Positions 2,186 to 46,777 are shown, numbered from the stretch's first letter. The stretch is 46,777 nucleotides of DNA from an uncultured Candidatus Saccharibacteria bacterium (GCA_964551525.1 CAZKCH010000003.1:1-46777); one strand, 5' to 3'. Notes: generated from the letters alone by a model not told the origin. A program made the numbers and translations.

Positions 2186-2253
2186 TGCAATCACCTCCTT
2201 TCAAAGAGATTAGTCCCAACCATGAAAATTTAAACACGCTTTATGACTTTCGT

Positions 2254-2286
2254 CAAACAAAATCAAAACGCCCGCACAAGGGCGCT
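2254..2286 (-). terminator. Rho-independent terminator candidate after groEL
   Basis: On the minus strand, a GCGCCC-TTGTGC-GGGCGT stem-loop is followed by TTTGATTTTGTTTG, about 35 nt after the groEL stop. Confidence 0.55.
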
Positions 2287-2318
2287 TCGATTTCAAATTT
2301 CAAATTATAAATTTAAAA

Positions 2319-3962
<1,644 letters not shown>

Positions 3963-4040
3963 TTAATACTGATACGACTGATTAATACCGATAATCAGCA
4001 TAAATCAGTTAAAATCCGTATGAATCAGTGCGAATTTAGT

Positions 4041-4331: not shown

Positions 4332-4366
4332 AGATTATATTAATTAATGTTAATCCTTTATAGATT

Positions 4367-5977: not shown

Positions 5978-6173
5978 AACCGATTAGTACATTTTAGCAG
6001 AAATCACTAAAAACTAAAACCCAAAAAATAGCACTCCTTACGCTTCAGCGTCCCCAGAGGTCTGCCGATGCTATTAAATCAAACCTGTCAACAATACCCA
6101 CGATCGCTTGTATTGTTGACAACCGCAATTTTGCCTCATCTAAATTAAGGAGTATAATTGTATAATTTGAATT

Positions 6174-7202: not shown

Positions 7203-7239
7203 TTGACCGCCTCGTTTTCTTTTGCTATGATGTCTTAAC

Positions 7240-7587
7240 ATGTGGAATCTGCTCCTAAGAATAGCGGGATCAATTGCCGGCCTTTGGCTTGCTGACAAAT
7301 ACGTCCCGGGCGTCCAGATATTGGGCGATTGGAAAATTTTGGTTCTGATCGGCACCTTTCTCGGCGGCGTTAATTTTTTCTTGAAACCGATTCTCGATGC
7401 CATCACCTTGCCGCTAAAACTCCTCACCCTCGGCCTGATCAGTTTAATTATTAATATGGGCTTGGTCTGGCTGATTGACATTGCTTTCCCGGAACTGGTC
7501 ATCTTAGGACTGCTCCCCTTGTTCTGGACCACTATTATTATCTGGCTGATAAACTTTATCCTTCAAAAGTGGCTGCCGAATAAATAA
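7240..7587 (+). CDS. Small 4-TM membrane protein, DUF360 / phage-holin-family-4-like
   Basis: 115 aa, four hydrophobic helices. The sequence pattern resembles the PF04020 family. Confidence 0.55.
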   Translation: MWNLLLRIAGSIAGLWLADKYVPGVQILGDWKILVLIGTFLGGVNFFLKPILDAITLPLKLLTLGLISLIINMGLVWLIDIAFPELVILGLLPLFWTTIIIWLINFILQKWLPNK

Positions 7588-7588
7588 T

Positions 7589-7831
7589 ATGAATGTATTT
7601 CAACTCATCGAACAAACCAGACCTTATCTGCCCGCGGCGCAAATCGCCATTGCTTTGCTTTTGATTATTTTAATCTGGCTCCAGCCCCGCGGCGAATCGC
7701 TGGGATCGGCTTTTGGACAAAGTTTTTCTTTGCCCGGCAAATTGCGCGGCTTTTCCAAAAAAATCTTTTGGCTGACAATAATGCTCAGCGTCTTTTTCGT
7801 CATCTTAGCTCTCTTAGATTTGCTGGCGTAA
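7589..7831 (+). CDS. secG: Probable preprotein translocase subunit SecG
   Basis: 80 aa with two TM helices separated by a Gly-rich loop (LQPRGESLGSAFGQSF...RG). This is the SecG-like pattern. Confidence 0.5.
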   Translation: MNVFQLIEQTRPYLPAAQIAIALLLIILIWLQPRGESLGSAFGQSFSLPGKLRGFSKKIFWLTIMLSVFFVILALLDLLA

Positions 7832-7846: not shown

Positions 7847-9838
7847 ATGTTCTCTTTGAAGTCATTTCCTTCTTTTGACCAATGCCGGAAAATTTTCCGG
7901 GTTTTAAATAACAAGGAAAAAAACATTTTCCTTTTTTTGGCGATCATCAGCTTCGTTTCTCTATCGGCTTGGGGAATAAGTTTTTACTTTCGCGCCACTA
8001 CCTTGGTACCGGCCGTCAGCGGCAAACTGATTGAGGGCGTCATCGGCCAGCCAAGATTCATCAATCCCGTTCTCTCTTCCGCCAATGACGCTGACCGCGA
8101 CTTAACCGAATTGGTCTTTGCCGGCTTAATGAAATATGCCCCCAACGGCGACGTTATCCCTGATTTGGCGGCGGGCTACGAAATCAAAGACAACGGCAAA
8201 ACCTGGGAAGTAACCTTAAAAGAAAACCTTGTCTTTCAAGACAACACACCCTTAACCGCCGATGATGTCATTTTCACCGTCAAAACCATCCAGAATCCCG
8301 ATTATAAAAGCCCGCTAAGAGCCAGCTGGCTCGGCGTAGAAGTGGAGCAAATCTCCGCTTTCACCATCGCCTTTAAGTTGAAAAACAGCTACCCGCCCTT
8401 TTTAGAAAATCTGACTTTGAAAATAATCCCCAAAGCGATTTGGAAACAGATCAGCCCGGAAAACTTCTCCTTGGCCATTTTCAACTTGAAACCAATCGGC
8501 TCCGGCCCTTACTTGGTTGATAAAATCATCCAGGAAAAAAACAGCGACGGCCGGATTAAATCGCTTTCTTTAAAAATCAATCCCCGCTACGTTGGCGAAG
8601 CAGCTAAGATAAAAGAAATTTCTTTTTTGTTTTTTGAAAACGAAAATGATCTGGCCCAGGCGGCAAAAACAAGAAAGATCAGCTCGTTAGTGATACCGTC
8701 GCCCGACCAAAAAAATGAATTGCTTAAAAAATCGTTTCAAGCCGTTGAATTTGAATTGCCCCGGTATTTTGCTGTTTTCCTCAACCCCAAAAACCAAATT
8801 CTGGCGGAAAAATCAGTCCGGCAAGCCCTGAACTACGCCACCGACAAAACAGGACTGATCAATAATGTTCTGGCCGGCAACGGTACGATAGTAGAGTCCC
8901 CGCTTTTACCCGCGATTTTCGGCCTAAGCGAACCGAAAAATATTCTCGGCTTTGATTTGGCAAAAGCGAATGAAATCTTGGATAAAGCCGGTTTTGTTAA
9001 AAATGCGGAAACCAATATCCGCGAAAAAGAAGTGGCGCGAACGCTTGCCTTTGAATTCAAAAGCAAGTTGGTCAAGGGCTCGCAAGGCGCAGAGGTAAGA
9101 GAACTCCAGAAATGCCTTGCTAAAGACGCGGCCATTTATCCCGAAGGCGAAGTCACTGGTGTTTTCGGCGACAAAACCAAGCAAGCCGTCATTCTTTTCC
9201 AGGAAAAATTCCGCCAAGAAATTCTAGTGCCGGCCGGACTGACCGAGGGCAATGGCGAAACCGGCGTTCTAACGAGAAGCAAGCTTAATGAATTCTGCTT
9301 CGGCCCCAAAAAAGAATTGCGCCAGTTGAAATTCTCTTTAATCACCGTTGACGATCCCGTCCTCATCAAAACCAGCCAGCTCCTTAAAGAGCAATGGTTA
9401 GCCATTGGCGTTGATCTCCGGATAGAATCAGTCAATTTCTCCCAGCTGAATACCGATTATTTGAAATCAAGGAATTACGATGCGCTTTTATTCGGTGAGG
9501 TTCTCGGCCGAACATTAGACCCGTTTCCTTTCTGGCACTCTTCCCAGAAAAAAGATCCCGGCCTGAACTTGGCGCTTTACGAAAACAAAGAAGCAGACAA
9601 ACTTCTTGAAGAGGCCAGACAGACAAGCGACGAAACAATCAAAAACCAGAAATTGGAGAAATTCCAGGAAATCGTTTTAAATGACGCCGCCGCGGTTTTC
9701 CTTTACCAGCCCGACTTTACTTATCTGCTCCCGGCTAAGTTAAAGGGCGTGGAAACGGGATTTATCATCGATCCTTCAAAAAGATTCGCCGGCATTGAGA
9801 ATTGGTACTTCAAAACAAAAAGAGTATGGTCAAAATAG
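7847..9838 (+). CDS. ABC transporter substrate-binding protein, family 5 (peptide/nickel type), with an inserted peptidoglycan-binding domain
   Basis: 663 aa with an N-terminal TM anchor and SBP_bac_5-like sequence on both sides. A PG_binding_1-like segment (GSQGAEVRELQKCLAKD...VTGVFGDKTKQAVILFQEKF) lies at about 9070-9300. Confidence 0.78.
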   Translation: MFSLKSFPSFDQCRKIFRVLNNKEKNIFLFLAIISFVSLSAWGISFYFRATTLVPAVSGKLIEGVIGQPRFINPVLSSANDADRDLTELVFAGLMKYAPNGDVIPDLAAGYEIKDNGKTWEVTLKENLVFQDNTPLTADDVIFTVKTIQNPDYKSPLRASWLGVEVEQISAFTIAFKLKNSYPPFLENLTLKIIPKAIWKQISPENFSLAIFNLKPIGSGPYLVDKIIQEKNSDGRIKSLSLKINPRYVGEAAKIKEISFLFFENENDLAQAAKTRKISSLVIPSPDQKNELLKKSFQAVEFELPRYFAVFLNPKNQILAEKSVRQALNYATDKTGLINNVLAGNGTIVESPLLPAIFGLSEPKNILGFDLAKANEILDKAGFVKNAETNIREKEVARTLAFEFKSKLVKGSQGAEVRELQKCLAKDAAIYPEGEVTGVFGDKTKQAVILFQEKFRQEILVPAGLTEGNGETGVLTRSKLNEFCFGPKKELRQLKFSLITVDDPVLIKTSQLLKEQWLAIGVDLRIESVNFSQLNTDYLKSRNYDALLFGEVLGRTLDPFPFWHSSQKKDPGLNLALYENKEADKLLEEARQTSDETIKNQKLEKFQEIVLNDAAAVFLYQPDFTYLLPAKLKGVETGFIIDPSKRFAGIENWYFKTKRVWSK

Positions 9839-29997: not shown

Positions 29998-31049
29998 TGT
30001 ACTGGTTCATGACATATGATACACTTGCCACCACATGAAAGGCAGGTACAATGGTTGCCGTATGACTATCTACGGCACAGTAATTCCCCGAGCCCGGTCA
30101 ATCGCCTCCTGAGCTTGGCGGACAGAATCGTTAACCGCTAAGGCGAGATATAAGATGAAGATATTGGATTGGCATCGGATTCACGGAAACAATGCCTCTC
30201 TGCTGCAAGACATTTTGGTCTGGGAAGAATGACAATCCGGAGATGGTTAAAAAGGATTAAGACAATCGGCATCGTCGGTCTTAACGAATATTCCCGTAAG
30301 CCCAAAAGATTAAGGCAACCGACCACGAGTTGGGAGATAGTCAGTCAAACCGTTGAATTAAGACAACAATATCCGGCCTGGTCAAAGTATAAGCTGCAGA
30401 TTCTTTTAGAAAGACGGGGGATAAAAACATCGGTTAGCACGGTGGGACGAATTCTAAAAAGAAAGAGTTTGATCAACCGCAAGATTTCGCAAAAGAGGAG
30501 GAAAGCGGCTTTAAGGCCCAAAGCCAGGTTTCCCAAGGGGTTGGTCATCTCTCGCCCCGGAGACATGATCCAGATAGACGTTAAGCATATCATGCTTGTG
30601 GGCGGACATAGGTTTTACCAGTTCACTGCCATTGACGTCCTGACTAAGTACCGGATCCTAAGGATCTATCCGTCGGAATCTTCCCGTAATGGCGCCGACT
30701 TCCTGAAAGAATGCCTGAAGGAATTTGAAAGAATGACCAAGGAATATGGATTACCTCACTACTTCATTTACCCAAGGAATCCAAAACAGAATACTTACGT
30801 GGAAATCTCTCACGGAGCGGATAAACGGGAATTCTACCAGTAAGGCAATGTTTGTTCTTTCCTGGAAACCATGCGAGAAAGAATCAAGGGAAGACAGCTC
30901 GTCTGGAACACGGTCAGACCCCACCAGGCGCTTAACTATCTGACGCCTACTGAATACCTGGCCAGACTCCAAACTATCCCGCTTCCTACTCGAGATTTCA
31001 TCACATTACAAACTTAACGAGGTGTATCAGATGTATCTGAACCTGGACA
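29998..31049 (+). mobile_element. Decayed IS481-like (rve/DDE) insertion sequence, 1052 bp
   Basis: The imperfect terminal inverted repeats start with TGT: 29998-30024 against the reverse complement of 31022-31049, about 22 of 28 positions matching. The element is flanked by CCCCC on both sides (29993-29997 and 31050-31054). It encloses a disrupted transposase reading frame. Confidence 0.7.
30155..31017 (+). pseudogene. Disrupted rve-type (IS481-like) transposase
   Basis: The ATG at 30155 opens MKILDWHRIHGNN in a different frame from the HTH and catalytic part (30169 onward). The segment expected between ECLKEF and YGLPHYFIYPRNPKQN, normally holding the second catalytic Asp (TDNG-type block), is missing. 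An in-frame TAA at 30841-30843 precedes the conserved tail WNTVRPHQALNYLTPTEY, which ends at 31017. Confidence 0.7.
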
Positions 31050-31065: not shown

Positions 31066-31105
31066 AAATAGCACCTCCAAAGATCGGATCTTTGTGAGTG
31101 CTATT
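31066..31105. repeat. Palindromic repeat family 1, copy a
   Basis: AAATAGCACCTCCAAAGATCGGATCTTTGTGAGTGCTATT forms a two-tier hairpin (ATAGCAC/GTGCTAT and CAAAGATC/GATCTTTG). It overlaps the stop codon of the Y1 gene. Confidence 0.8.
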
Positions 31106-31832
31106 CTGCTTCTATGATCGGGTCACTCAAGCTAACCGCATTTCTTCGATTATTCAAATATTGTTTTATAATTTTTAAACAATTATTCCCGCCGCCGATC
31201 ATCTCTATAAAAAGTTTTCTTTCTGTTACTGATGGGAAGTTTTTCTTTCCTAAATAATCTTGAAAGCTTGACCATTTATATCCCTTCAAAAAGCTAATCG
31301 CTTTTTTAAAATCCCTTATTCCGGTCTCTTTCCATTTCGGAAAAATAATTGCCAATGAGTTGCTATGGATATAAGAAAATACAATCATTAATTGTTCGTC
31401 GTTCTTAATGTGAACCGCCCTAAACTTTCCGGCAAAGAGATGCCCGCTTCTCTTTCGCCGCTTGTTAAAATATGTGGCATACCCAATCCCAAGTTTTTGG
31501 ATAAATTTACTTATGCCAGCTGATTTTAATTGCCGAACTAAAAGATGGATATGATTCGGCATTAAGCAAAAAGCCAAAACGTCTACTAACTTTTTACGTT
31601 CGAGTAACGGGATATTTTTCGGGACTAAATTCTTATTAATTTTGATTAGATTTTTAAATCGTTCTCGCTCTTTTCTCCGGTCACGGATAATAACCGGCGC
31701 TGACGTATTAAATTCAAATAATGAAAAGATCCCGCGATAATAATCCTCTTTATCTAAAAATATCCTCCGTTGTTCTACGCCTCTGAGAATAACATGATAA
31801 ATTTCTCCTTCGACTAAGAGTGGCCGATTCAT
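31101..31832 (-). CDS. HUH/Y1 tyrosine transposase-like protein (IS200/RAYT family), copy 1
   Basis: 243 aa from MNRPLL. It carries the N-terminal YHVILRG..RRIF motif, the HUH motif PNHIHLL and the Tyr motif YIHSN. The ATG at 31859 in the ORF track lies inside the flanking repeat and was not used. Confidence 0.8.
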   Translation of the reverse strand: MNRPLLVEGEIYHVILRGVEQRRIFLDKEDYYRGIFSLFEFNTSAPVIIRDRRKERERFKNLIKINKNLVPKNIPLLERKKLVDVLAFCLMPNHIHLLVRQLKSAGISKFIQKLGIGYATYFNKRRKRSGHLFAGKFRAVHIKNDEQLMIVFSYIHSNSLAIIFPKWKETGIRDFKKAISFLKGYKWSSFQDYLGKKNFPSVTERKLFIEMIGGGNNCLKIIKQYLNNRRNAVSLSDPIIEAE

Positions 31833-31844
31833 ACTTTTACATTG

Positions 31845-31884
31845 AAATAGCACCTCCAAAGATCGGATTTTTGTGAGTGCTATT
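31845..31884. repeat. Palindromic repeat family 1, copy b
   Basis: It is identical to copy a at 39 of 40 nt. The single C-to-T change (31869) converts a G-C pair into G-T, so the stem is preserved. It lies 13 nt upstream of the Y1 gene start. Confidence 0.8.
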
Positions 31885-31888: not shown

Positions 31889-34105
31889 TTATTTTTGGAG
31901 CTGGGAGAGCTTGGCTTTCAGGGTTTCGTTGTTGGGACTGACAAGCAAGGCCCGCTGTAAATAATCTATGGCTTTATTGATTTCTTTTTTCTTTTCGTAA
32001 GACAGAGCCAAAGAATACAAGCTGTCCAAATGCCGGGGATTGATTTTCAGCACTGCCTCGAATTGAGCAATGGCTTCGCTTGGCTTGTTCTGATTGTAGT
32101 ATAAGCGGCCAAGCTGAAAAATCGGATCAATATTTAAAGGATATCTTTCCTGAAGATGAATTAATTGCTCAATCGCGGGCCGGAAGCTCCCCTCTTTTTC
32201 TTTGACTAAAGCGGAAAAAAGGTACGGCTCCAGTAAATCCGGTTTAAGTATTTTTGCCCGAGCAAGGCTTTCTTTGGCCAGATCCAATTCATTGGCGGCA
32301 AAATATATTTTAGCCAAGCGAAGATGAAGCAGCGGGTTAGATGGTTCTAACTCAATTGCTTTTTGAAATGATTTAATCGCCCAATCTTGGGCGCCGTCTA
32401 TGGCCGATATCAATTCCTGATATAAGATGCCGGCATTTTCCCAAGCCGCCACCCAGTAAGGAAAACTAGTGGTGGCTTGATTGGCTGCGGTTGAAGCCGA
32501 AGAAACCATTTGGAAAATCCTTTGATTGTCCGCGGCCGAAACCCCTGGTTTTTGCGATTCTGCCAAGGCCAATAAAATGAGATTACGGCTCAAAAGAATC
32601 TGGTATTCGCCGGCACTGGGATTAATGGCCGCTGCCTTTTGGAGCAAGGCGATCTTTTCCTCGCCCAAATCCTTTTTCATCGCTACATTATATAAGTAAT
32701 CAGCCCTGACTATTTTGAAGCCATAGAAAGCAATATAAACAATCACGGAAATGGCAATCAAAGACCCGAGCACTGACGCCGTTCGCTGCCATAATTCAGT
32801 TTTGATAAAATTAAAGTGCGGCAAAGAAATTTCTCTTTTTTGAGCCGACAAGCCGGCGATCAGACCTAAAAACAGCCAGAATAAAAGAGATAAGGCGAAG
32901 TTTTGGTAATAAACCGCTTGGCCGATGACCACGGCCAGAAAAGTAAAACCGAGGCCGTTGTTCTTAATACAAGATACTGAATACCAAAGACCAAATATTA
33001 TTAATGCCAAATGAGCCAAAATCCCTATTATTCCGGTGGTGGCCAATATTTCTGCCAGGCGACTGATTGGCCGGTCAAATCTCACTTGCCACAATGGATC
33101 TTGGTTAAAATCCGGCTGACGGAAACGGGAAAAATCATAGAAAAAAGTGCCGGGACCGGACCCAAACAAGGGCTTAATTTTAAAGGCGTCGAAAGAAAAC
33201 TGCCAACTCGTTTCTTGGTCCAAAGTCACTTCTTGCGGCACAGACAAAAACCGCGTCGTCAAAGGCCTAATATTAATGGCTAATCCTAAAACCGAAATGG
33301 AAAACAAGACAATTAACGCCCAAGTTTTGCATCCCTTGAGCGAGGCCTGCTTGCCTTCTTTTAAAAAAGTAAAGGCCAATTGCAAGAAAGCCCCTGTTCC
33401 TACTATTATCCAAGCCGGGCTATAATCGACTAATAAAAGCAGAATTGAAGACAAAACAATTAACGCCTTGGCCAGAATATTTTTTCTTTCCAGCGCTAAA
33501 AAGATCAAGGGCGCTAAAAAGATCAGCAGACCCTCTAAGGACGGGGCGACCAAGTTAAAATTATTCGGCAAGCCCAGCCATTTCAGGCCGCCCAGCATAG
33601 CCAATAAGGCCATCGCCGCGGCTGTTAAGCCGGAGACGGATAAAGCAGTTTGTAGTAAGTAGTATGTAGTTTGGGTTTGGGTTTGGGTTTGGGAAATGAG
33701 CCGGCTGATGAAAAAATACACCATGGCCATTAAGGCCAGAATAATCAAACTGCCCGAAGAGCGGCCGTAAAATCCGAAAACGGAAAAGTTTTTATCCACT
33801 GAAAAGAAAGCCGAAACCACGTTTACCAATAGGGAAAGGATAACCAAGGCGTCAAAAGGCCAAAGACTTACCAGCCTACGGCTGGTCTGCCGAAGGCAGA
33901 AAACTTGAAACCGATTGACGACTTTCACCGCTAGGAAAACAAGGCAAGCCGAAAACAACAGAATCAGTTTCGGGAATTCCCAGCGCTCAAAAAAGAAGGG
34001 CAGCCAAAATAAGGGCAATAGAAATACTAAAACCGCGAACCAATTTTTACCGGCGAAGTTAAAAATCTTTTTCAGAAACATTTGAGGGTGATAATTTTTA
34101 ATCAT
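31889..34105 (-). CDS. O-antigen ligase-like (Wzy_C) polytopic membrane protein with C-terminal TPR repeats
   Basis: 738 aa with about 10 or more TM helices, a GSGPGTFFYDF-type motif, and a C-terminal third made of TPR-like repeats. Confidence 0.75.
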   Translation of the reverse strand: MIKNYHPQMFLKKIFNFAGKNWFAVLVFLLPLFWLPFFFERWEFPKLILLFSACLVFLAVKVVNRFQVFCLRQTSRRLVSLWPFDALVILSLLVNVVSAFFSVDKNFSVFGFYGRSSGSLIILALMAMVYFFISRLISQTQTQTQTTYYLLQTALSVSGLTAAAMALLAMLGGLKWLGLPNNFNLVAPSLEGLLIFLAPLIFLALERKNILAKALIVLSSILLLLVDYSPAWIIVGTGAFLQLAFTFLKEGKQASLKGCKTWALIVLFSISVLGLAINIRPLTTRFLSVPQEVTLDQETSWQFSFDAFKIKPLFGSGPGTFFYDFSRFRQPDFNQDPLWQVRFDRPISRLAEILATTGIIGILAHLALIIFGLWYSVSCIKNNGLGFTFLAVVIGQAVYYQNFALSLLFWLFLGLIAGLSAQKREISLPHFNFIKTELWQRTASVLGSLIAISVIVYIAFYGFKIVRADYLYNVAMKKDLGEEKIALLQKAAAINPSAGEYQILLSRNLILLALAESQKPGVSAADNQRIFQMVSSASTAANQATTSFPYWVAAWENAGILYQELISAIDGAQDWAIKSFQKAIELEPSNPLLHLRLAKIYFAANELDLAKESLARAKILKPDLLEPYLFSALVKEKEGSFRPAIEQLIHLQERYPLNIDPIFQLGRLYYNQNKPSEAIAQFEAVLKINPRHLDSLYSLALSYEKKKEINKAIDYLQRALLVSPNNETLKAKLSQLQK
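33669..33692. repeat. Hexanucleotide microsatellite (GTTTGG)x4
   Basis: A perfect tandem repeat that encodes QTQTQTQT in frame within the gene at 31889-34105. Confidence 0.85.
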
Positions 34106-34107: not shown

Positions 34108-36495
34108 TTATTCTCCAGTTTCTTCTTGAATCGGCGGCTCGCTCTCTACTTGAACCCCTTGAAGCGCGGGCTTGCCTGCTTTCAGATTAGCAACGATCTT
34201 GGGCACTTCCGCATTATCCGGATTAAGCTTGGCAATCGCTTCAAATTGCTCTAAGGCCAGGGCTTTCTTGCCGGCCTTATCGTAAATCAGGCCCAAGAAA
34301 TAGCGGGCATTGGAATAATTCTGATTCAAAGAAACAGTTCTTTCAAACTCAACCTGGGCTTTATCCATCTGATTATCAGAGTAATAAACAAGACCTAACT
34401 GGAAAGACAAGCCGACATCAAAAGGAGCAATGGTTTTTGTTTCCTCCAACTTAACAATCGCGTCTTTGGTTTTATTCTCGCGGATGTCAATCATGGCCAG
34501 TTGGTAGCGGGCCGGCGCATAATCAGATTTTAATTCCAAGGCCTGCTGGAATTTTTCTTTGGCCGCGGCTAAAAATTCGATTTTCTTTGCCTCTTCTTTA
34601 GTATTATCCGCCCGGGCAATAAAGAGTTGGCCGATCTCGGTGGGCAAAGACGGGTTAGTCGGTTCTAATTTAAATGCGGTTTCGTATGACTGGATCGCCC
34701 AATCATCAACGCCGGTAATGGTCGGAAACAAGCTGGCATAAACCGCGCCGCGGATCGTCCAGTTGGCAACGCTCTTCGGCGAAACATCAGTGGCCGCCTT
34801 AGCGCTGGCAATCACCTGGGAAATCAAATCATTAATCCTCTTGGAAAGCTCTTCTTTAGATAGAGTGGTATTCTGCGCCTCTTGATTAATCTGATAAATA
34901 TAGACCTGGGACAAATCACGCCAGAGGTTATCCTGTTTTCTTTCGGTCAAACCAATGGCGCTGGCCAGAATATTAATGGCTTTGACATTATCGCCGGCCG
35001 CCACTGCTTTCAAGGCCCCCATATATTTCACTTCGGCCAAATAATGTTGGCCCTGAAAAAAGAAAATCATCAGCGTCGCAATCAAAACAACAATAAAAGC
35101 CGCGGAAACACCAATGGGCAATAAAACCGCTTTAGACATTTTCTTTCCTTCTTCTCCCCCGGTAACGGTAACTGGCCGATGAAATTCAAAAGTCCGGGTA
35201 TTAACGCCAATGACGCCGAATAGCAAAGCCAATAACAGCCAGAAAATAAAGGCAAGGGTTAAATTGCCGCCGTAAAAAATTTGGCCCACCACTGAAGCGA
35301 CAAAGCTGGCAAAAACCCCGGTTAAAAGCGCTAAACTAAAATCCTCTTTGCGGGCAATAATCCCAGTCGTCAACGCCTTAAAACCATAAAAGCCGGCAAT
35401 AAAAATTACGGCCAGAAAAGAAACCAAGCCGAGAATGCCGGTCGTCGCCAACTTATCGATTATGTCCGAAGCGCCGGAAACAAATCTGGTCGCCCAAAAA
35501 CTTGTCTGATTAACTGCCAATGGCTTGTATAAAGAATAGTCATAAACAAAAGTACCAGGGCCGGAACCGAATAGAAAAGACCAGGGCGGCTGGAAGTTTT
35601 GAATGGTAGCAAAGGCGATTTTGGCCGTGGCGTTGAACGACGGGCTGACCTCGGCCGGCAAATTAGCAATGGGCAAAAGCGAAGTGGTGAGCACTAAGGA
35701 CAAAAAACTAATGGCCAATAGAATCATCGGTAAAGCCAACTTGCCCATGCTGAAGCTTTCCCGCCGGGTAATGCCAAAAATTAAAATGAGAGCCGAGCCG
35801 GCTAATAAGGCGATCCAAGCCACTTTAAAGTTAATGACCAGAAGTAAAAATAAAGATAACAGAATAAAAGACCAGCCAAGAATTTTCAATATCTTTTTGA
35901 CCGGAGAAAAAACCAAGCTGGAGGCCAGGGGCAAAAGCACGGCTAAGAACACGGCCAAACTATTAATCGTGCCGATGGTATTAAAGGAATTAACCTTGGC
36001 AAAATCAAAGGGCAGAAAAAACTTGCCTAGAATATGGGGCAGAGCGATTAAAGCGACGAGCAAACCGGAAATAATGGCGATGTGAGCAATGCCGAGAAAA
36101 TCCTTGGCCTCGCTGAAAACATGAGTCAAAATAAAATAGAATAAAACCAAGGCCAAGGAAACCAAGAAACTGGCGCCGGCGGCCAAAGGCCAGCCCCAAA
36201 AACTGGCATAGGGATAAGCCGATATCAGCGTGGAAATGCCCAAGGCAACGACGAGAATAAGGGGCAAAAGATTAAACCGACTGACATTCAAACTGATTTT
36301 CTCTTCTAACAACGCCTTCAACAACCAAAAGAGAAACGCGCCGAGAGTTAACAAGACCAATATCACCTGCTTATTAAGATCTAAAACATTGCTGGTGAAC
36401 GGCAGGAAAAACACCGGCACTAAAAAGACCGCAATTAAAAGCGCTTTTTGGGAAACTTTTAGCCAATGGTTAGCCGAACTTTGAATGTCTGTCAT
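34108..36495 (-). CDS. O-antigen ligase-like (Wzy_C) polytopic membrane protein with C-terminal TPR repeats (paralog)
   Basis: 795 aa with the same architecture as the downstream neighbour (GSGPGTFVYDYS motif, TPR-rich C-terminus). Confidence 0.75.
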   Translation of the reverse strand: MTDIQSSANHWLKVSQKALLIAVFLVPVFFLPFTSNVLDLNKQVILVLLTLGAFLFWLLKALLEEKISLNVSRFNLLPLILVVALGISTLISAYPYASFWGWPLAAGASFLVSLALVLFYFILTHVFSEAKDFLGIAHIAIISGLLVALIALPHILGKFFLPFDFAKVNSFNTIGTINSLAVFLAVLLPLASSLVFSPVKKILKILGWSFILLSLFLLLVINFKVAWIALLAGSALILIFGITRRESFSMGKLALPMILLAISFLSLVLTTSLLPIANLPAEVSPSFNATAKIAFATIQNFQPPWSFLFGSGPGTFVYDYSLYKPLAVNQTSFWATRFVSGASDIIDKLATTGILGLVSFLAVIFIAGFYGFKALTTGIIARKEDFSLALLTGVFASFVASVVGQIFYGGNLTLAFIFWLLLALLFGVIGVNTRTFEFHRPVTVTGGEEGKKMSKAVLLPIGVSAAFIVVLIATLMIFFFQGQHYLAEVKYMGALKAVAAGDNVKAINILASAIGLTERKQDNLWRDLSQVYIYQINQEAQNTTLSKEELSKRINDLISQVIASAKAATDVSPKSVANWTIRGAVYASLFPTITGVDDWAIQSYETAFKLEPTNPSLPTEIGQLFIARADNTKEEAKKIEFLAAAKEKFQQALELKSDYAPARYQLAMIDIRENKTKDAIVKLEETKTIAPFDVGLSFQLGLVYYSDNQMDKAQVEFERTVSLNQNYSNARYFLGLIYDKAGKKALALEQFEAIAKLNPDNAEVPKIVANLKAGKPALQGVQVESEPPIQEETGE

Positions 36496-39552: not shown

Positions 39553-40269
39553 TTATTCTAAGGATAAATTATTGACTCGTTCCCACTTCTTGCCTTCTAA
39601 AACATCTTCAACGAATTGATTATACTTCCATTTATTTGAGAAAATTTCGCCGAGTAATCCTTTTTCAATAATTATCGATTCCCTCTTTCCGGTGTATTCC
39701 TGATGAGTGCTCCAAGAATAATCGTCGGCGAAACGCATGATTTCTTTCACATTATTAACCCCTACTTCTTTCAATTTAGGTTCTACTAACTCGCCCGGAT
39801 TAATTACATTAATATAGACGAGTAGATACTCTAAATATGTTTCTTCCTCCACCGGAGCGGCCTTAAATCGACTCTGAAACAAAGCGCCAACTCGATTATA
39901 TTTGTTGTTAAAATATTCAGCGTATCCCGTACCGAGTTTATGCATAAATCGAGAAATGCCACCTTCTTTTATTTCCTCAAGTAAAAGATGGAAATGATTC
40001 GGCATCAAACAATCGGCCATTATTCTAACTAATGGTTCTCGATTCCTTTTTTCTCTTGCGAAAAACATTTTAAGTACCCTGAAAGTTACTTTTCCTCGAT
40101 CTCTTTCCATCTGCCAAAGTAGATTTGCCGTCGTCTTTTCATCGTTAAAAAGGAAAAGGCCTTGTAGAAAACGCCAATAATCATTATCGCTTTTAAAAAT
40201 TACTCTTTTCTCGACGCCTCGATTAAAAACGTGGTAAATTTTTCCTTTTTCAAACTTGAATTTTCTCAT
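39553..40269 (-). CDS. HUH/Y1 tyrosine transposase-like protein (IS200/RAYT family), copy 2
   Basis: 238 aa with YHVFNRG..KRVIF, the HUH motif PNHFHLL and the Tyr region YLLVYINVINP. It is clearly paralogous to copy 1 but diverged. Confidence 0.8.
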   Translation of the reverse strand: MRKFKFEKGKIYHVFNRGVEKRVIFKSDNDYWRFLQGLFLFNDEKTTANLLWQMERDRGKVTFRVLKMFFAREKRNREPLVRIMADCLMPNHFHLLLEEIKEGGISRFMHKLGTGYAEYFNNKYNRVGALFQSRFKAAPVEEETYLEYLLVYINVINPGELVEPKLKEVGVNNVKEIMRFADDYSWSTHQEYTGKRESIIIEKGLLGEIFSNKWKYNQFVEDVLEGKKWERVNNLSLE

Positions 40270-40355: not shown

Positions 40356-43300
40356 TTACTCCGCAGAAACAGGGACGCTTTCGGCCGGTGCTGACTCTAC
40401 TACGGGCGCTGGAGCGGACTCTATCACGGGCACTGATTCTACCACGGGCGCCGGAGCAGGTTCTGCTACTGCCGGAACTTCCGGGGCGGGCGCGGGTTCT
40501 GGCACTGATTCTATCACCGGTGTCAACTCTACTGATGGCGCTGGCTCAACTAAAGGCGCTGACTCTGATTCCGGTATAACCGGCTCTGCCTCTGGAACTT
40601 CTGGTATAACCTCTGGCGCGGGCTCTGCTTCTGGAACTGGTGTTGTTTCTGGCTCGGCTGAAGTTTCCGGCACATCCTCCAGGAGTCCGTCCTCCAGGAG
40701 TCCGACTCCTGGAGATGGTTCTGGAGTAATTTCTTGGCTATCGCCTGCTGTACCTACGGCGGAATCATCACAATCCCCTCTGAACTTCTGCCACTCGCCG
40801 TTTTCTATCCAAACGCACCAGGTCTCGCCAGTCGCATTATCAACCATTTCCATTTTGTCCAAGCGCGCCTCGTTAACGGTTATCTTTTCGGCAAAAATTT
40901 CTTTCAAGCTGGCCATGCCGTTTTCAATAACAAGCCCGAGCGAAGCGAGGGCCTGCTTAACTTTCTCGGCAAATAACTCCGCCGTTGTTTTTGGCGCCGG
41001 CGCCGGCTGGCCGTCTGCCAAGACCCCTTCCGCGCTAAGATTATTATTTACGCCCAGCATTTTTTGCAATTCTACAATTTGTTTTTGCTGTTCTTTGATG
41101 CCTTCAACCAAAAGCGCAGTTAGTTTTTCATAATGAATGCTGTAATACTCTTCACCGCTGTCGCTGTTAGTGAAAGCGAATGTCGCTTCGGGCAAAACCG
41201 CCATCACATCCTGGGCGGAAAGGCCCAGCCGTTTTTTGGCATCATCGGCATCTTCAAGAGAATTGTAAAGAAAACCATTAAGAGCGGTGATCTTTTCCAA
41301 GGCGTTTTCAATGGGAGTAATATTCTTTTTCAAACGAATGTCGGAAGTAACTAAGCCGAGATTTCCCGTACCGTCGTCTCTATAAACCGCAGTGTCGCCG
41401 TCAGCCGTCCAAACGCTCATTTGAATCCGGCCGATCACATCCAAGGCCTGGTCAGGAGAAACTTCGCCGATGCCGAGATATCCGCTTTCATTAAGCCGCA
41501 TCGCTTCGGTTAAAGTGCCGGCCCGCATCGTGGAAAAAGCAAGGGCACCGTCTTCAGTGGCATCAGAAACATCAACGGCAATAGCGGTCAGACGGCCGTA
41601 ATTAATCTGTTCATCAGCATCATTCTGGCCAGCCAAAGTCAGGAAAACAATGTTGTCGCTGTCAGCCGGCGTGGCTGAATTGTGATGGAAAATCGCCTCA
41701 ATACCAGTGGCGCCGTCGGCATGCGAACGAGCCGTCAAATTGCCAAGCTGGTCAACCATAAATGCCTCCTGATGCTGGGGCTCACCGGAATTATCACGGT
41801 CGTTGTTATAAACATTAAAAACCTTAAAAATATTATTAACCACCACTGTATCTTTAACGAGCGTGGAAGAGGTAAGCGAAGTCAGCACCGTATCCAAGGA
41901 AACATCAGAGGTTTCGAGCCAGGCAGTAGTAGTGTTTTGTTCAACGATGGCTAAGATGAATGCATCTCCTCTTGATTGTTTGGTTCCCAGATCATATTGA
42001 GTATTGTAGTAACCGGAAACAGAGATATCTTGGACTCGATCAATATTGAAAGCATTGCCCGAATCATCGGTCTTGGCATTATCTATGGTGTAGGTATCAA
42101 CTCTAGAATCGGAATCAATACCAAGAATAGAAACTGCTCCGTCATCTGCGTTTCCTGTTCCTACAAAAATGACTTGATTACCGTCATCAACAACAATAGC
42201 ATAAACATCATCTTCGCCGTTTTGTAATTGCTGGAGATCGTCGGTGTCGGTAACGCCATCGTCATCGGTATCAACTAAAGTATTGTGCATCTGCTTGGCT
42301 CGTTTGCCGACTTCGTATATTTGTTTGACTTGACCATATGATAATGTTTCGGCGGTAATCATCACCTCGTCTATGGTTCCGGCAAAAGGAGTAAGAGTAG
42401 CGACCGCGTCATCGGCATCATAGTCGGCAATAGTGAAATCGCTTGTTACATCTTCAAGTCCCAGGAAGGAAGCGTTAAGGGAAGAGGAGTTAACTACTCC
42501 ATCTACATATAGTTTGGCATCTCCAGCTGCTCCTGCCACTCCACCGTTAAATGTTGCTGTCAGATGATACCAGGTAGAGACAGCCACTTTATCAACAGCC
42601 TGAGTAGCTGTTATTGTCTGGTCAGTACTCTCATCATACACATCAAACTGGAAGTTACCTGTTGTGTCAGCATCATCATTCTCAAGAATAACCCTGTATC
42701 CTCTTTGAGCACTGGTTGCATCCCATTTACCAACAATCAGATCCTGTTCAGTGGAACCTGGCATAGTATCTACATATACCCAGGCTGAGACACTGAAAGC
42801 TTCACTACCATTAAAGTCTAAATCAGCATCTGAAAGAGTAGGAATACTTAATAACTCTGTACTTCCGTCAAATGAAGCTCCTTTACCTCTGACTCCAGTA
42901 ACTGCATCTCCTGAATCAATGTTAGTTGCTGTTAATACATTGGCCTTTACAGATAAATCTTCCAGATCAGCATTAGCCTTGTCCATATTCAAAGGCCACA
43001 TAGCTCTCACATCTCCCACCATCTCTTCAGTGATATATGAAGTCGTGTAATACTTTACCGATCCATTACTTTCATCTCCGGCTTTGTCATTAATGACAGT
43101 CATTCCATCTCCATGAGCTACATAGATAGTATCTGATGAGCCATCAACTGTGGAAGTTCCTTGTGTGACAAAAAGCGAGTGGATAGTTGATAATGTGGGT
43201 GCAGCTGCGTCTTCAGTCAACGACGGAGTTGAAGCTTCATCCCAGACTTTATCTGGTGTTCCATTAGCTTCAGAAGCTGTATCTAAATGAACATTATTCC

Positions 43301-46300
43301 ATTTTTCTACTTGTGCCAGAGTGTTATTGTACCCATATAGTTCTCCTCCTGGAGTCAGCCAAGCGCCATAATAGGAATTGCCTGTGACATCTGAGTAAGT
43401 GTAGGCAGTATTATCAGTGTCGTTGACAACGACTAAATAAGAAAGGGTTGCAACAGCAATATATGTTTTACCGTTGATAATTTGTGGAGTAGCAACATCA
43501 CGGATATTACCATCACTGACAGTTGATTTAACAGTAATTCCGTCCGTATCTTTAGTGGCATTTCTTTGGGAGAGATTGCCTTTGTATGCGCCCAGATAAG
43601 TGGTTGTATGATAGTTGTAAGCTGAGTCGGTATTTAAATCTATTCTGACAAGACCGGTACTAACAGTCCCTACATAAATGACACCATTTAAGGCAGAGAT
43701 TGTATAAGGCTGCGACTCTAAAATATCTGTTGAGGCAACTGCAAATCTCATCCACATCGTATTATCCTGTGCATCAAAGATGTACATATTGGTGTTTGTG
43801 GCAACAATTACTGCCTTCTGAGGAAACTCCCTGCTTCCACAACGGTCATCGGTGCCAATCACACAAGCTGATCCTATATTATCAATGGTTTCGTTGTACC
43901 AGGAGGAAGCTTTTGTTTTTTCAGAAAATCTCCAAGCACCGCCATCAGAATCTTTAGTAGTATCATATATATAAATACTACTGGTGCTAGCACCTGAAAG
44001 TGCTTTCCTGTCAATCTTGCCTTTGAGGATGGTGTCTTTGCCGCCATTTTGGGTGATGGTACTGGCTACGGTTAAGATACCATCGGCAAATAAGTCTCCG
44101 TCTACTTCAAGATCATCGGAGATAAAGACGTCGGAGGAGCTGGTGACTTCTCCTGTTGCCGTATGGGAAGCATCACCGGTGCCAATGGTATTGTAGCTGT
44201 TGCCATCAGGGGTTGAGTCGGCAAACGAGAAAGCTCCTGATGATGTCAAATATCCGGTTGAATCCACAGTAAAACTATTGGCCGGAAACGGTTCTCCTGT
44301 TGTAGTATCCCTGCCATTGGCATCTGAGTTGACAACTTTTAGAAGGTTATTGGCAATAAGAGTGTCTTTAACAAGATTAGGAGAAGTAAGCGAAGCTATA
44401 GCAGTATCCAGAGAAACATCTGAGGTTTCCAGCCAGGCAGTGGTGGTATTTGACTCAATAATAGCGATTGTAAAGGCATCTCCTCTTGCCTGTTTTGTGC
44501 CTAAATCATACTGAACATTGTAGTTGCCGGAAACAGCAATATCATAAAAACGGTCAATATTAAAAGCATTTCCACTATCATCTGTCTTGGCATTGTCAAC
44601 GGTATATGTATCCACTCTTGAATCAGAATCAATACCAATGACAGATACAGCTCCATCATCAAGATTGCCTGTTCCTACAAATACAGCCTGGTTTCCATCA
44701 TCAACAGCAATAGCGTAAGTATCATCCTCGCCATTCTGCAATTGCTGGAGATCGTCTGTATCGGTGATACCGTCATCATCGGTATCTGCACTGGTATTGT
44801 GCATCTGTTTGGCTCGTTTACCAACTTCATATATCTGTTTAACTTGTCCAATTGATAATGTCTCAGCTGTCACCATTACCTCATCAATAGTTCCAGTAAA
44901 AGCTGTATCTGTTGCAACTATATCATCAGCATCATAATCAGCAATGGTAAAGTCAGATGTTACATCTTCAAGTCCTAAGAAAGAAGCATTAAGAGCTGAT
45001 GAGTTAACTACTCCGTCAACATATAGTTTGGCATCACCAGCTGCTCCTGTCACTCCACCATTAAATACAGCTGTCAGATGATACCATGTAGAGACAGCCA
45101 CTTTGTCAACAGCCTGAGTGGCTGTTATTGTCTGGTCAGTACTCTCATCATACACATCAAACTGGAAGTTACCGGTTGTGTCAGCATCATCATTCTCAAG
45201 AATAACCCTGTATCCTCTTTGAGCACTGGTTGCATCCCATTTACCAACAATCAGATCCTGTTCAGTGGAACCTGGCATAGTATCTACATATACCCAGGCT
45301 GAGACACTGAAAGCTTCACTACCATTAAAGTCTAAATCAGCATCTGAAAGAGTAGGAATACTTAATAACTCTGTACTTCCGTCAAATGAAGCTCCTTTAC
45401 CTCTGACACCTGTGACTGCATCTCCTGAGTCAATATTGGTGGCTGTTAAGACATTGGCCTTTACAGATAAATCTTCCAGATCAGCATTGGTCTTGTCCAT
45501 ATTCAAAGGCCACATCGCTCTCACATCTCCCACCATTTCTTCAGTGATATATGAAGTTGTATAATATTTGACACTGCCATTTGTCTCATCTCCGGCCTTG
45601 TCATTAATCACTGTCATTCCATCTCCATGGGCAAAGTAAATCGTGTCACTTGTTCCATCAACAGTTGAGGTGCCTGGGATGACGAAAAGCGAATGATAAA
45701 CAGTTGCTGTTGGCGCGGCTGCATCTTCAGTTAACGATGGAGTTGACGCTTCATCCCAAACTTTGTCTGGAGTTCCATTAGTCTCCGAAGCCGTATCCAA
45801 ATGAACATTATTCCATTTTTCCAGTTGCGATTGTGTAGTATTGTATGCATACAGTTCTCCTCCCGGAGTAAGCCAGACACCGTAATAATCGTCACCAGTG
45901 ACATCGGAATAGGCATAAGCGGTATTATCCATTTCATTAATAACGCTTAAGTAGTAGTCGGTAGCAATAGCCACATAAGTTTTGCCATTGATAATTTGCG
46001 GAGGGGCAATATCATAGACAGAAGCAGGATTGGTACCAACTGCAGCTTTGGCAGCAATACCGTCAGTATCTTTAGCGGCGTTTCTTTGAGATAGATTACC
46101 CTTATAAGTACCTAAGAATGTACTTCCATGGTAGCAATAAGATGAATCAGTAGTGAAATCGATTCGAGTAAGAAGGTAAGAGCCTAAGCCTACATAAATA
46201 ACACCGTTTGATGCAGAAATACCCCAAACACTTGAGCTTTCAAGAATGTTCATTGAGGCGGCCGCAAACTTCATCCATAAAGTATTGTCCTTGGCATCAA

Positions 46301-46777
46301 AGACATATAAGCCGCCACTGGTCGCCAATAAAATTGCTTTCTGGGGAAATTCCTTACTTCCGCAGCGGTCATTGGAAGCAATCACACAAGCAGCTCCTGT
46401 ATTGTCAATTGTTTCGTTATACCATGAGGAATTTTTAGCTTTCTCGGAATATCTCCAGGCTCCTCCGTCAGAGTCTTTAGCAGTATCATAAACATATGCT
46501 GAATACTGTGTACCACCAGTGGCTTTCCTGTCAATCTTGCCTTTGAGAATGGTGTCTTTGCCGCTGGCTTGAGTAATTGTGTTATCAGCAAATAAATTAG
46601 TATCAACCTCAAGATCGCCGGAAACCAAAAGATCAGAGGAACTGGTGACTTCGCCCGTTGCCGTATGTGAAGCATCACCTGTACCAATGGTATTGTAGTT
46701 ATTTCCATCAGGGATGGAATCGCCGAATGAAAAAGCTCCGGAGGAAGTTAAATAGCCGGTTGAGTCAACCGTAAAAC
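40356..46777 (-). CDS. Giant modular surface/tail-fibre-like protein, 5' end outside the window
   Basis: The reading frame stays open from the stop at 40356 to the window edge, and 46629-46777 translates as FTVDSTGYLTSSGAFSFGD... with no stop. There are two complete modules of about 835 aa plus the tail of a third. Each module carries a LamG-like domain, and the C-terminus has a Peptidase_S74-like domain and a Pro/Glu-rich tail. Confidence 0.85.
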   Translation of the reverse strand, partial: FTVDSTGYLTSSGAFSFGDSIPDGNNYNTIGTGDASHTATGEVTSSSDLLVSGDLEVDTNLFADNTITQASGKDTILKGKIDRKATGGTQYSAYVYDTAKDSDGGAWRYSEKAKNSSWYNETIDNTGAACVIASNDRCGSKEFPQKAILLATSGGLYVFDAKDNTLWMKFAAASMNILESSSVWGISASNGVIYVGLGSYLLTRIDFTTDSSYCYHGSTFLGTYKGNLSQRNAAKDTDGIAAKAAVGTNPASVYDIAPPQIINGKTYVAIATDYYLSVINEMDNTAYAYSDVTGDDYYGVWLTPGGELYAYNTTQSQLEKWNNVHLDTASETNGTPDKVWDEASTPSLTEDAAAPTATVYHSLFVIPGTSTVDGTSDTIYFAHGDGMTVINDKAGDETNGSVKYYTTSYITEEMVGDVRAMWPLNMDKTNADLEDLSVKANVLTATNIDSGDAVTGVRGKGASFDGSTELLSIPTLSDADLDFNGSEAFSVSAWVYVDTMPGSTEQDLIVGKWDATSAQRGYRVILENDDADTTGNFQFDVYDESTDQTITATQAVDKVAVSTWYHLTAVFNGGVTGAAGDAKLYVDGVVNSSALNASFLGLEDVTSDFTIADYDADDIVATDTAFTGTIDEVMVTAETLSIGQVKQIYEVGKRAKQMHNTSADTDDDGITDTDDLQQLQNGEDDTYAIAVDDGNQAVFVGTGNLDDGAVSVIGIDSDSRVDTYTVDNAKTDDSGNAFNIDRFYDIAVSGNYNVQYDLGTKQARGDAFTIAIIESNTTTAWLETSDVSLDTAIASLTSPNLVKDTLIANNLLKVVNSDANGRDTTTGEPFPANSFTVDSTGYLTSSGAFSFADSTPDGNSYNTIGTGDASHTATGEVTSSSDVFISDDLEVDGDLFADGILTVASTITQNGGKDTILKGKIDRKALSGASTSSIYIYDTTKDSDGGAWRFSEKTKASSWYNETIDNIGSACVIGTDDRCGSREFPQKAVIVATNTNMYIFDAQDNTMWMRFAVASTDILESQPYTISALNGVIYVGTVSTGLVRIDLNTDSAYNYHTTTYLGAYKGNLSQRNATKDTDGITVKSTVSDGNIRDVATPQIINGKTYIAVATLSYLVVVNDTDNTAYTYSDVTGNSYYGAWLTPGGELYGYNNTLAQVEKWNNVHLDTASEANGTPDKVWDEASTPSLTEDAAAPTLSTIHSLFVTQGTSTVDGSSDTIYVAHGDGMTVINDKAGDESNGSVKYYTTSYITEEMVGDVRAMWPLNMDKANADLEDLSVKANVLTATNIDSGDAVTGVRGKGASFDGSTELLSIPTLSDADLDFNGSEAFSVSAWVYVDTMPGSTEQDLIVGKWDATSAQRGYRVILENDDADTTGNFQFDVYDESTDQTITATQAVDKVAVSTWYHLTATFNGGVAGAAGDAKLYVDGVVNSSSLNASFLGLEDVTSDFTIADYDADDAVATLTPFAGTIDEVMITAETLSYGQVKQIYEVGKRAKQMHNTLVDTDDDGVTDTDDLQQLQNGEDDVYAIVVDDGNQVIFVGTGNADDGAVSILGIDSDSRVDTYTIDNAKTDDSGNAFNIDRVQDISVSGYYNTQYDLGTKQSRGDAFILAIVEQNTTTAWLETSDVSLDTVLTSLTSSTLVKDTVVVNNIFKVFNVYNNDRDNSGEPQHQEAFMVDQLGNLTARSHADGATGIEAIFHHNSATPADSDNIVFLTLAGQNDADEQINYGRLTAIAVDVSDATEDGALAFSTMRAGTLTEAMRLNESGYLGIGEVSPDQALDVIGRIQMSVWTADGDTAVYRDDGTGNLGLVTSDIRLKKNITPIENALEKITALNGFLYNSLEDADDAKKRLGLSAQDVMAVLPEATFAFTNSDSGEEYYSIHYEKLTALLVEGIKEQQKQIVELQKMLGVNNNLSAEGVLADGQPAPAPKTTAELFAEKVKQALASLGLVIENGMASLKEIFAEKITVNEARLDKMEMVDNATGETWCVWIENGEWQKFRGDCDDSAVGTAGDSQEITPEPSPGVGLLEDGLLEDVPETSAEPETTPVPEAEPAPEVIPEVPEAEPVIPESESAPLVEPAPSVELTPVIESVPEPAPAPEVPAVAEPAPAPVVESVPVIESAPAPVVESAPAESVPVSAE
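40675..40714. repeat. Palindromic repeat family 3, copy inside coding sequence
   Basis: TCCTCCAGGAGTCCGTCCTCCAGGAGTCCGACTCCTGGAG contains the hairpin CTCCAGGAGT-CCG-ACTCCTGGAG (40692-40714). It matches 22101-22135 at about 33 of 36 positions and reads in frame as GVGLLEDGLLED. Confidence 0.7.
41750..46777. repeat. Tandem repeat of about 2.5 kb coding modules (period 2502-2514 nt), at least 2 copies plus a partial third
   Basis: Homologous landmarks are 42564/45078 and 42751/45265 (offset 2514) and 44114/46616 (offset 2502). The boundaries are approximate. Confidence 0.8.

Follow-up and report, generated by a model that had tools for sequence, protein, structure and literature searches.

What kind of protein is encoded by the giant gene that runs off one end of a chromosomal contig from a Patescibacteria-type bacterium, and how might such a cell use it? 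The window analysed here is that entire contig (46,777 nucleotides, GCA_964551525.1 CAZKCH010000003.1:1-46777, deposited under an uncultured Candidatus Saccharibacteria bacterium), and the gene lies on its minus strand, cut at the 5′ side by the contig end. We consider that this open reading frame (ORF) probably represents the C-terminal 2,139 amino acids (aa) of a longer, cell-encoded homotrimeric mosaic surface fibre, built by a bacterium of the candidate phyla radiation (CPR) on the principle of phage receptor-binding proteins and of the mosaic adhesive trimer (MAT) fibres of Bdellovibrio bacteriovorus. Likening the protein to a MAT-type fibre draws on homology of its chaperone, on apparent homology of its stalk and on an analogy of lifestyle.

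For partner recognition by CPR bacteria, the literature names type IV pili as well as generic 'large adhesin-like proteins' (PMC12206443, PMC13059738), and large (>1,500 aa) Patescibacteria surface proteins with ConA/LamG, FN3 or integrin-like domains, among them membrane proteins with concanavalin-like domains, are considered adhesion candidates (PMC13059738). The MATs of B. bacteriovorus are fibres of three chains, displayed on the cell surface and akin to phage tail fibres (Caulton et al. 2024, PMC10769870). They carry a conserved beta-rich N-terminal domain of about 130 aa after the signal peptide and combine a conserved anchoring end with diversified tips, one of which binds prey glycans; 13 of the 21 end in an S74 domain, in which the serine of an SDxxxK motif self-cleaves, as shown for S782 of Bd3182 (PMC10769870). 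In the literature that we searched, no paper linked S74 or MAT-type fibres to Patescibacteria.

The reading frame and its source

The minus-strand frame contains no stop for 2,139 codons (40359-46775) and closes with a TAA (40356-40358). A sequence-only reading of the window had described the frame as open to the window edge and had called the TTG start at 46628 artefactual; translation agrees on both counts, the TTG being simply where an ORF listing first meets a start-like codon inside the sequence. The 49 codons 5′ of this TTG read FTVDSTGYLTSSGAFSFGDS... (FTVDSTGYLTSSGAFSF...) and are identical to aa 835-884 at 45 of 50 positions, in keeping with the resemblance to an internal module already proposed for the edge stretch (46629-46777), and coding therefore runs on to the edge. 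Because the window is the whole contig, its RpoB being on record with a longest contig of 46,777 bp, the N terminus of the giant protein is irrecoverable from it; the feature itself is real, and its 3′ end is well delimited. The RpoB encoded in the window is closest to proteins of Candidatus Wildermuthbacteria and Parcubacteria (84-85% identity). By this measure the source genome is of Patescibacteria type (Parcubacteria-type, CPR), which suits the small-genome bacterium envisaged earlier.

A phage-type stalk and chaperone at the C terminus

The last 468 aa lie outside the repeat that makes up the rest of the frame and were left undescribed by the sequence-only reading, which thereby passed over the most informative part of the protein, a phage-type chaperone. 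Pfam assigns aa 1811-1864 to Peptidase_S74 (PF13884, named 'Chaperone of endosialidase' by Pfam itself) with E = 4.8e-15 and 56 bits against a cut-off of 22 bits. PHROG tail-fibre profiles match aa 81-239 of the C-terminal fragment, with E-values down to 2.6e-24, and extend into the stalk; in every case the S74 match lies at the very C terminus of these profiles. Among solved structures, gp37 of phage S16 (6F45) matches the S74 region (E = 1.7e-6), with SDRRIK aligned to the SDIRLK of the window protein. At each of the two predicted catalytic positions, Ser1811 and Lys1816, conservation reaches at least 90% across an alignment of 25 sequences. In the AlphaFold2 model of the C-terminal fragment, the chaperone domain alone is very confident, with a predicted local distance difference test score (pLDDT) of 85-95 over fragment aa 141-240, and its top Foldseek matches in the PDB are T5 pb1 with its chaperone (4UW8), the ICA domain of MyRF (7DC3) and the endoNF chaperone (3GW6). 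Profile matches and predicted fold concur that an S74 domain with an intact Ser/Lys dyad is present.

The stalk directly upstream appears to carry a tail-fibre/MAT-type repeat and matches the trimeric Bdellovibrio protein Bd1334 (8OML, residues 818-1151) over about 50 aa (phmmer, E = 2.7e-4), with a weaker second stretch; it is modelled with low confidence as a monomer. Together, stalk and S74 shift the picture from a monomeric beaded surface protein to what would be a three-chain fibre resembling phage receptor-binding proteins or Bdellovibrio MATs.

Past the chaperone, the chain continues through a two-Cys unit, modelled as a helix (260-274) and strands (277-328) at pLDDT 64-78, into a Pro/Glu-rich tail (Table 1). 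The segment directly after the chaperone is common to the relative P0016 and the syntenic orthologues described below, and similar Pro/Glu-type tails occur in P0009, P0010, P0016 and L038. No hydrophobic or transmembrane segment and no sortase motif was found after the chaperone. Within the tail, a 15-nt tandem repeat (40675-40714, 2-2.6 copies by TRF) codes for GLLEDGLLED.

Tandem modules with a propeller-like domain and a LamG fold

Upstream of the stalk, the window holds exactly two copies of one module, of 834 and 837 aa, which a single blastp alignment of the split protein pairs over 836 columns at 80.9% aa identity (E = 0) and whose start-to-start spacing in the DNA is 2502-2523 nt. This bears out the modular giant with a tandem repeat of about 835 aa that had been read from the sequence, and every motif string quoted in that reading is present in the translated protein. 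The 2.5-kb repeat was reported neither by TRF, owing to its period limit, nor by blastp self-comparison, owing to culling of self-hits, and was seen on splitting the protein.

Two stretches match Laminin_G_3 in Pfam (94.2 bits against a cut-off of 27.6, E = 1e-26). Outside LamG, Pfam offers no credible family for the rest of the module, and a sequence search of the PDB gave no match to the module. The AlphaFold2 model of module B (mf37e33ee054d, from a 14-sequence alignment) reaches a predicted template modelling score (pTM) of 0.76 and a mean pLDDT of 70.5, residues 86-790 being mostly confident and residues 1-85 and 791-837 of low confidence. It runs through about 25 strands, a LamG jelly-roll (about 464-640), a long helix (646-663) and seven further strands (690-787). 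Against the PDB, the model as a whole is matched best by trypanosomal trans-sialidases and sialidases, in which a beta-propeller is joined to a ConA-like lectin domain, and by the GH43 arabinanase AbnA (Foldseek, E = 4e-12). LamG-type structures such as the binding domains of clostridial neurotoxins follow, matches to viral structures are LamG-like jelly-roll structural proteins, many of them from cyanophages, and isolated LamG-like domains align to the module model with TMt 0.66-0.78 and a root-mean-square deviation of about 3 Å. These models support a beta-propeller-like domain, here called the N-domain, with an attached or inserted LamG. The LamG/ConA-like jelly-roll, the 'possibly propeller-like' first part and the further beta-rich stretch named by the sequence-only reading all have counterparts here, the flanks of LamG being modelled as all-beta.

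The thrombospondin-type-3-like label that the same reading had given to an acidic motif in each module is not supported. One 12-mer fitting the consensus, DTDDDG(I/V)TDTDD, does occur per module, but TSP_3 has no Pfam match in the protein at E ≤ 1, the motif sits in a low-pLDDT loop (665-673) after the long helix of the model, and relatives carry non-acidic residues at its position, for example HTSSQITGITNADAYQQL. The acidic stretch may be a lineage-specific linker, which may or may not bind calcium.

The fold of the module also underlies the main rival to an adhesive fibre. In a depolymerase fibre, each propeller would be a glycoside hydrolase paired with a lectin, cutting the capsule, S-layer glycan or cell-wall polymer of a partner. 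In the phage K1F endosialidase tailspike, a propeller bearing an inserted lectin-like domain is followed by a stalk and then by an S74 chaperone, an order that the propeller-lectin, stalk and S74 of the window protein would repeat. The sialidase, trans-sialidase and AbnA matches of the module model and the Pfam name of S74 point the same way, as does a cluster of invariant N-domain residues, acidic, aromatic or Arg (Y103, D104, D108, W114, E128, R237, R462). Sialidases use an Arg triad, whereas only two Arg of this cluster are invariant. Moreover, the likeness is one of fold: no glycosidase family (sialidase GH33 and GH43 included), BNR or Asp-box family matches in Pfam at E ≤ 1, no PDB sequence does, and the whole-model TM-scores to PDB entries are low (0.2-0.27). 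We therefore regard cutting by these knobs as unlikely.

A large family of giant proteins

An exhaustive HMMER search with aa 924-1294 recovered 1,279 cluster representatives (50% clustering) at E ≤ 1e-3, 118 of them at E ≤ 1e-30, and so exposed the apparent near-uniqueness of the module in a word-index search (eight relatives) as a limit of sensitivity. Relatives are mostly giant, at 1,500-5,600 aa. The 92 full-length members, which start with Met and have at least 1,000 aa, show a median length of about 2,200 aa, and in 63 of them a hydrophobic segment lies within the first 400 aa. Two relatives, P0039 (4,612 aa) and P0040 (4,384 aa), consist of an N-terminal region, a transmembrane segment at about 280-300, a long shaft made of GNVGIGT-type repeats and three propeller-LamG modules. 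In P0045 and P0057, collagen triple-helix repeats precede the module, and such repeats point independently to trimeric fibres.

No Pfam family lies over the N-domain in nine relatives checked, and the family is a large one with neither a Pfam model nor a solved structure; a DUF7772 match (Pfam, E = 0.17) did not recur across the nine and was taken as chance. A C1q-like head at the C terminus of P0039, suggested by a weak cerebellin match alone (E = 0.22), was likewise not relied on.

Scanning genome contigs with an N-domain pattern returned 34 loci, none from the window's own genome. They lie in metagenome-assembled genomes (MAGs) titled Gottesmanbacteria, Parcubacteria, Saccharibacteria, Moraniibacteriota and Patescibacteria, and also in MAGs titled Gammaproteobacteria, Pseudomonadales and Bdellovibrionales; these labels are unverified, and Pfam scans of the L024 and L029 fibre ORFs, together with two neighbours in L029, did not decide them. 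In the genome that encodes P0039, a second giant gene (3,395 aa) stands directly upstream (L002, positions 1-7750; GCA_964611875.1, CAZTBF010000004.1), and further contigs of the same MAG (L005, L016, L030, L031) hold N-domain matches, so that the family is expanded there.

A conserved chromosomal address with exchanged fibre bodies

The contig is ordinary chromosome in a housekeeping context, carrying groEL, genes for RNase J and a class I (Trp/Tyr-type) tRNA synthetase, recA, ftsK, rpoC and rpoB, together with two genes for Wzy_C/TPR proteins, yraN, comM, dprA and two Y1-transposase-like genes. The fibre gene sits upstream of dprA-comM-yraN-TPR/Wzy-rpoBC, and this neighbourhood recurs in genomes with RpoB 82-85% identical. 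A metagenome scan with the S74 region yielded 80 loci, the contig of the complete syntenic orthologue not being among them, and the best four S74 matches lie 0.1-2.8 kb from a contig end.

Several of these genomes have a fibre gene at the upstream end of this neighbourhood. In L001, an S74-plus-tail gene at this locus is cut by the contig start. L037/L038 contain a complete gene of 2,823 aa with two S74 stretches, a Cys unit and a Pro-rich tail; its product aligns only to window aa 1734-2091 (46% identity), and in L038 the fibre body is made of tail-fibre repeats with no propeller-LamG module, the N-terminal 535 aa lying outside the view. An unusual internal S74 stands about 130 aa upstream of the C-terminal one in L038 (3-6866; JGI 3300035659, Ga0373628_0000283). 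In L039/L040 the fibre gene is again cut by the contig start, and its end is identical to the C terminus of P0016, a protein without S74 that aligns at 46% identity with about 43% of the C-terminal fragment of the window protein and whose two-Cys unit is the closest to that of the window. In the place of S74, P0016 and L039/L040 (1-223) carry a domain that Pfam does not recognise (GFDIAEEYQTKDE...VALAGRILVKVS...); P0040 ends in a similar stretch, and the domain may act as another kind of auto-chaperone. L121 shows a PT-HINT/Lcl_C surface protein upstream of Y1_Tnp-TPR-rpoB and no fibre gene in the 10 kb shown. Across these loci, sequence comparison shows that address and C terminus are conserved, that the fibre body is exchanged and that the gene repeatedly breaks assemblies.

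This setting also bears on whether the gene might be a phage or prophage tail-fibre gene, or the remnant of one, lodged in the chromosome. The phage tail-fibre families that match fragment aa 81-239 would fit such an origin, as would the distant N-domain relatives P0006-P0008, which are phage-fibre-like (P0007 matches tail-fibre genes of cyanophages in its N-terminal part), and the Y1 transposase-like gene that adjoins the fibre gene. Yet the 46.8 kb contain no other phage structural gene and no packaging or lysis gene, the neighbours being dprA, comM, yraN, rpoB, rpoC, ftsK, recA and groEL; the fibre gene keeps its locus in several genomes; tblastn of the N-domain against 50,697 GenBank phage records finds nothing; and full-length relatives have N-terminal membrane anchors. 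A phage origin of this kind is very improbable.

Age and integrity of the duplication

Codon-aligned, the two modules share 77.5% nucleotide identity with many synonymous differences (synonymous divergence, dS, about 1.1; non-synonymous divergence, dN, 0.13; dN/dS 0.12, Nei-Gojobori), and all sub-segments have dN/dS of 0.05-0.12. The duplication is therefore no assembly artefact, a danger that the sequence-only reading had raised and against which this synonymous divergence speaks; the copies are old duplicates under purifying selection. They are 100% identical over 233 nt, their longest exact match, in the LamG core, and LamG has a dS of 0.43 against 1.4-2.3 in the other segments. This block probably reflects gene conversion and is the one place where a short-read assembler could swap the copies.

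That the tandem or its copy number arose in assembly, for instance through a chimeric join of paralogues at this exact repeat in a gene inside which the contig ends and related contigs also break, is scarcely credible, given that the frame is continuous over both copies and their junction, that the copies have diverged on either side of the block (dS > 1, dN/dS 0.05-0.12) and that independent assemblies of other organisms hold 2-4 such modules per ORF (P0039-P0043 and the partial P0001).

Relation to described fibres and chaperones

The closest described system is the MAT family of B. bacteriovorus. On the favoured reading, both are cell-encoded, phage-like fibres of a bacterium that lives on other bacteria; the stalk repeat of the window protein is probably homologous to Bd1334, S74 with SDxxxK is found in the window protein and in the S74 subgroup of MATs (for example Bd3182), and both appear to evolve as mosaics with one conserved end and exchangeable parts. 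They differ in size, with stated MAT lengths of 626-1,151 aa against at least 2,139 aa for the window fragment and up to 4,600 aa for its relatives. MATs vary at the C-terminal tip, whereas the window protein has two large internal propeller-LamG knobs in its shaft and 228 aa past S74. Its conserved end is the C terminus, the only end in view, in contrast to the N-terminal domain of MATs, and its host is a Gram-positive-like CPR bacterium rather than a diderm predator.

With phage fibres (K1F endosialidase, 3GW6; T5 pb1, 4UW8; S16 gp37, 6F45), the protein has in common the sequence, predicted fold and dyad of S74 and a stalk directly upstream of it, and with the endosialidase also a propeller-like part with an attached lectin-like domain before the stalk. 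Unlike them, it is encoded among chromosomal housekeeping genes with no virion genes, its receptor-binding-like modules are tandemly duplicated, its chaperone is non-terminal, and its propeller has no detectable sequence relation to sialidases. The MyRF ICA domain (7DC3) resembles the window's S74 in fold (Foldseek TM 0.60-0.63, target-normalised) and is likewise internal, with more sequence after it. MyRF, however, is a membrane-tethered eukaryotic transcription factor with a transmembrane helix after ICA, whereas a small Cys unit and a Pro/Glu-rich tail with no hydrophobic segment follow S74 here. The large Patescibacteria surface proteins of PMC13059738 are alike in size, in LamG/ConA-like content and in a proposed adhesion role. 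Such reports are domain inventories, and the window protein differs from their subjects in its S74-fibre architecture, its propeller-LamG module and its swapped-body locus, features that are undescribed in the literature we found.

Several findings weigh against a trimeric fibre of this design. The S74 domain occurs in none of the 145 top N-domain relatives, and the window's combination of domains is therefore unusual and without a second example. Whereas the phage PHROG profiles and the 13 S74-type MATs (PMC10769870) end in S74, 228 aa follow it here. Those 228 aa are the best-conserved part among the syntenic orthologues, a conservation that a discarded chaperone does not explain, since the tail would leave with it on cleavage. 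As for the knobs, the low whole-model TM-scores make a propeller with attached or inserted LamG a supported reading rather than a proven one; the model (pLDDT 70.5) draws on 14 sequences, its blade number and a single propeller continuous across the LamG insert are tentative, and the post-LamG strands give a weak profile-profile signal against the N-domain blades (hhalign, E about 1e-3). Finally, the window lacks the N terminus, and with it any export signal or anchor.

Other features of the contig

Feature coordinates are collected in Table 1. Two Y1_Tnp (IS200-like) homologues, at 39553-40269 (-) and 31101-31859 (-), bracket the dprA-comM-yraN-TPR/Wzy block, and Y1_Tnp genes stand at corresponding sites in L001, L039, L121 and L122 (RpoB 82-85% identical), which suggests long-resident, possibly domesticated (RAYT-like) copies rather than active insertion sequences (IS). 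Between Y1_Tnp and rpoB, a 224-aa ORF (30169-30843, +) with HTH_32 and a partial rve (positions 2-65 of 102) looks like a truncated IS transposase. Two adjacent genes (31889-34105 and 34108-36495, both -) encode TPR proteins of about 740-800 aa, the product of 31889-34105 also having Wzy_C (O-antigen ligase-like), and the TPR pair is kept beside rpoB in all relatives inspected. Elsewhere, a 536-aa ORF between groEL and a PGA_cap gene (4367-5977, -) has no Pfam match at E ≤ 1e-5, and an SBP_bac_5 solute-binding protein (7847-9838, +) contains an inserted PG_binding_1, an uncommon pairing.

Table 1 Coordinates of the giant ORF and its parts within the window
Feature	Coordinates	Strand	Basis
Giant-protein ORF, 5′-truncated	40356..46775	-	Translation without stops, stop codon checked
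Module A, aa 1-834	44274..46775	-	Self-alignment, segment phmmer mapping, Pfam Laminin_G_3
Module A, linker	46521-46775	-	
Module A, propeller-like N-domain	45408-46520	-	
Module A, LamG	44802-45407	-	
Module A, C-terminal beta blades	44274-44801	-	
Module B, aa 835-1671	41763..44273	-	Self-alignment, phmmer mapping, Pfam, AlphaFold2, Foldseek
Module B, linker	43998-44273	-	
Module B, propeller-like N-domain	42894-43997	-	
Module B, LamG	42288-42893	-	
Module B, C-terminal beta blades	41763-42287	-	
233-nt identical block, LamG core of both modules	45175..45407 (= 42661-42893)	-	Longest exact match, dS
Acidic motif DTDDDGITDTDD, aa 664	44751..44786	-	Regex, DxDxDGxxDxxD consensus
Acidic motif, second copy DTDDDGVTDTDD, aa 1502	42237-42272	-	Regex, DxDxDGxxDxxD consensus
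Fibre stalk, aa 1672-1809, tail-fibre/MAT-type repeat ...GALAFSTMRAGTLTEAMRLNESGYLGIGEVSPDQALDVIG...	41349..41762	-	phmmer against PDB, PHROG
Peptidase_S74 domain, aa 1810-1911	41043..41348	-	Pfam, PHROG, PDB match, AlphaFold2, Foldseek
Predicted catalytic Ser1811	41343-41345	-	Motif SDIRLK (SDxxxK)
Predicted catalytic Lys1816	41328-41330	-	Motif SDIRLK (SDxxxK)
Post-chaperone segment, aa 1912-2003: linker, helix, two-Cys beta unit (C1987, C2002; ...MEMVDNATGETWCVWIENGEWQKFRGDC...)	40767..41042	-	
136-aa Pro/Glu/Val/Ala-rich tail (P 22%, E 19%), predicted disordered	40359..40766	-	Composition, pLDDT < 55

A working model and its meaning

On the fibre reading that we favour, the protein would be held on the cell at its N terminus by a signal or membrane anchor with a long shaft after it, as in the full-length relatives. 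By analogy with endoNF, T5 pb1, MyRF and Bd3182, the S74 chaperone would align three chains and template folding of the beta-helical stalk, and would then cut itself off at Ser1811 using Lys1816, an activity carried over from studied S74 proteins. Each chain would bear at least two tandem knobs near the distal end of the shaft, each modelled as a propeller-like domain with an inserted LamG, and the segments of about 130 aa between modules, unfolded in the monomer model, may form trimeric shaft. Exposed on the surface, the knobs could make multivalent contacts with a partner or host cell, whose surface glycans or other epitopes would be bound by three chains of at least two modules each, and the protein may thus serve attachment to such a cell. 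A C-terminal chaperone and tail kept while the body is swapped at a conserved locus, as the comparison of loci shows, is what would be expected of a specificity determinant.

More tentatively, and with much less confidence than we place in the fibre itself, the rpoBC-side locus of these CPR bacteria could be dedicated to an S74-assembled trimeric fibre whose body, here the tandem propeller-LamG knobs, is swapped between lineages under retention of the chaperone and the two-Cys/Pro-Glu tail, and could act as a host-range determinant of episymbionts. If so, the polarity of conservation would be opposite to that of MATs, and the tail past the chaperone would serve a separate function, for example in export, in tethering or as a released signal.

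For the wider family, the analysis flags a large group of N-domain proteins that lacks a Pfam model and a solved structure. Because fibre genes systematically break short-read assemblies, they are probably under-represented and entered in error as short 'tail fiber domain-containing protein, partial' records. How CPR and Patescibacteria recognise their partners is little understood, and the fibre of this window provides a concrete candidate, built like a phage receptor-binding protein, that offers a predicted self-cleaving trimerisation domain (S1811), a lectin-like module and a conserved address with differing bodies.

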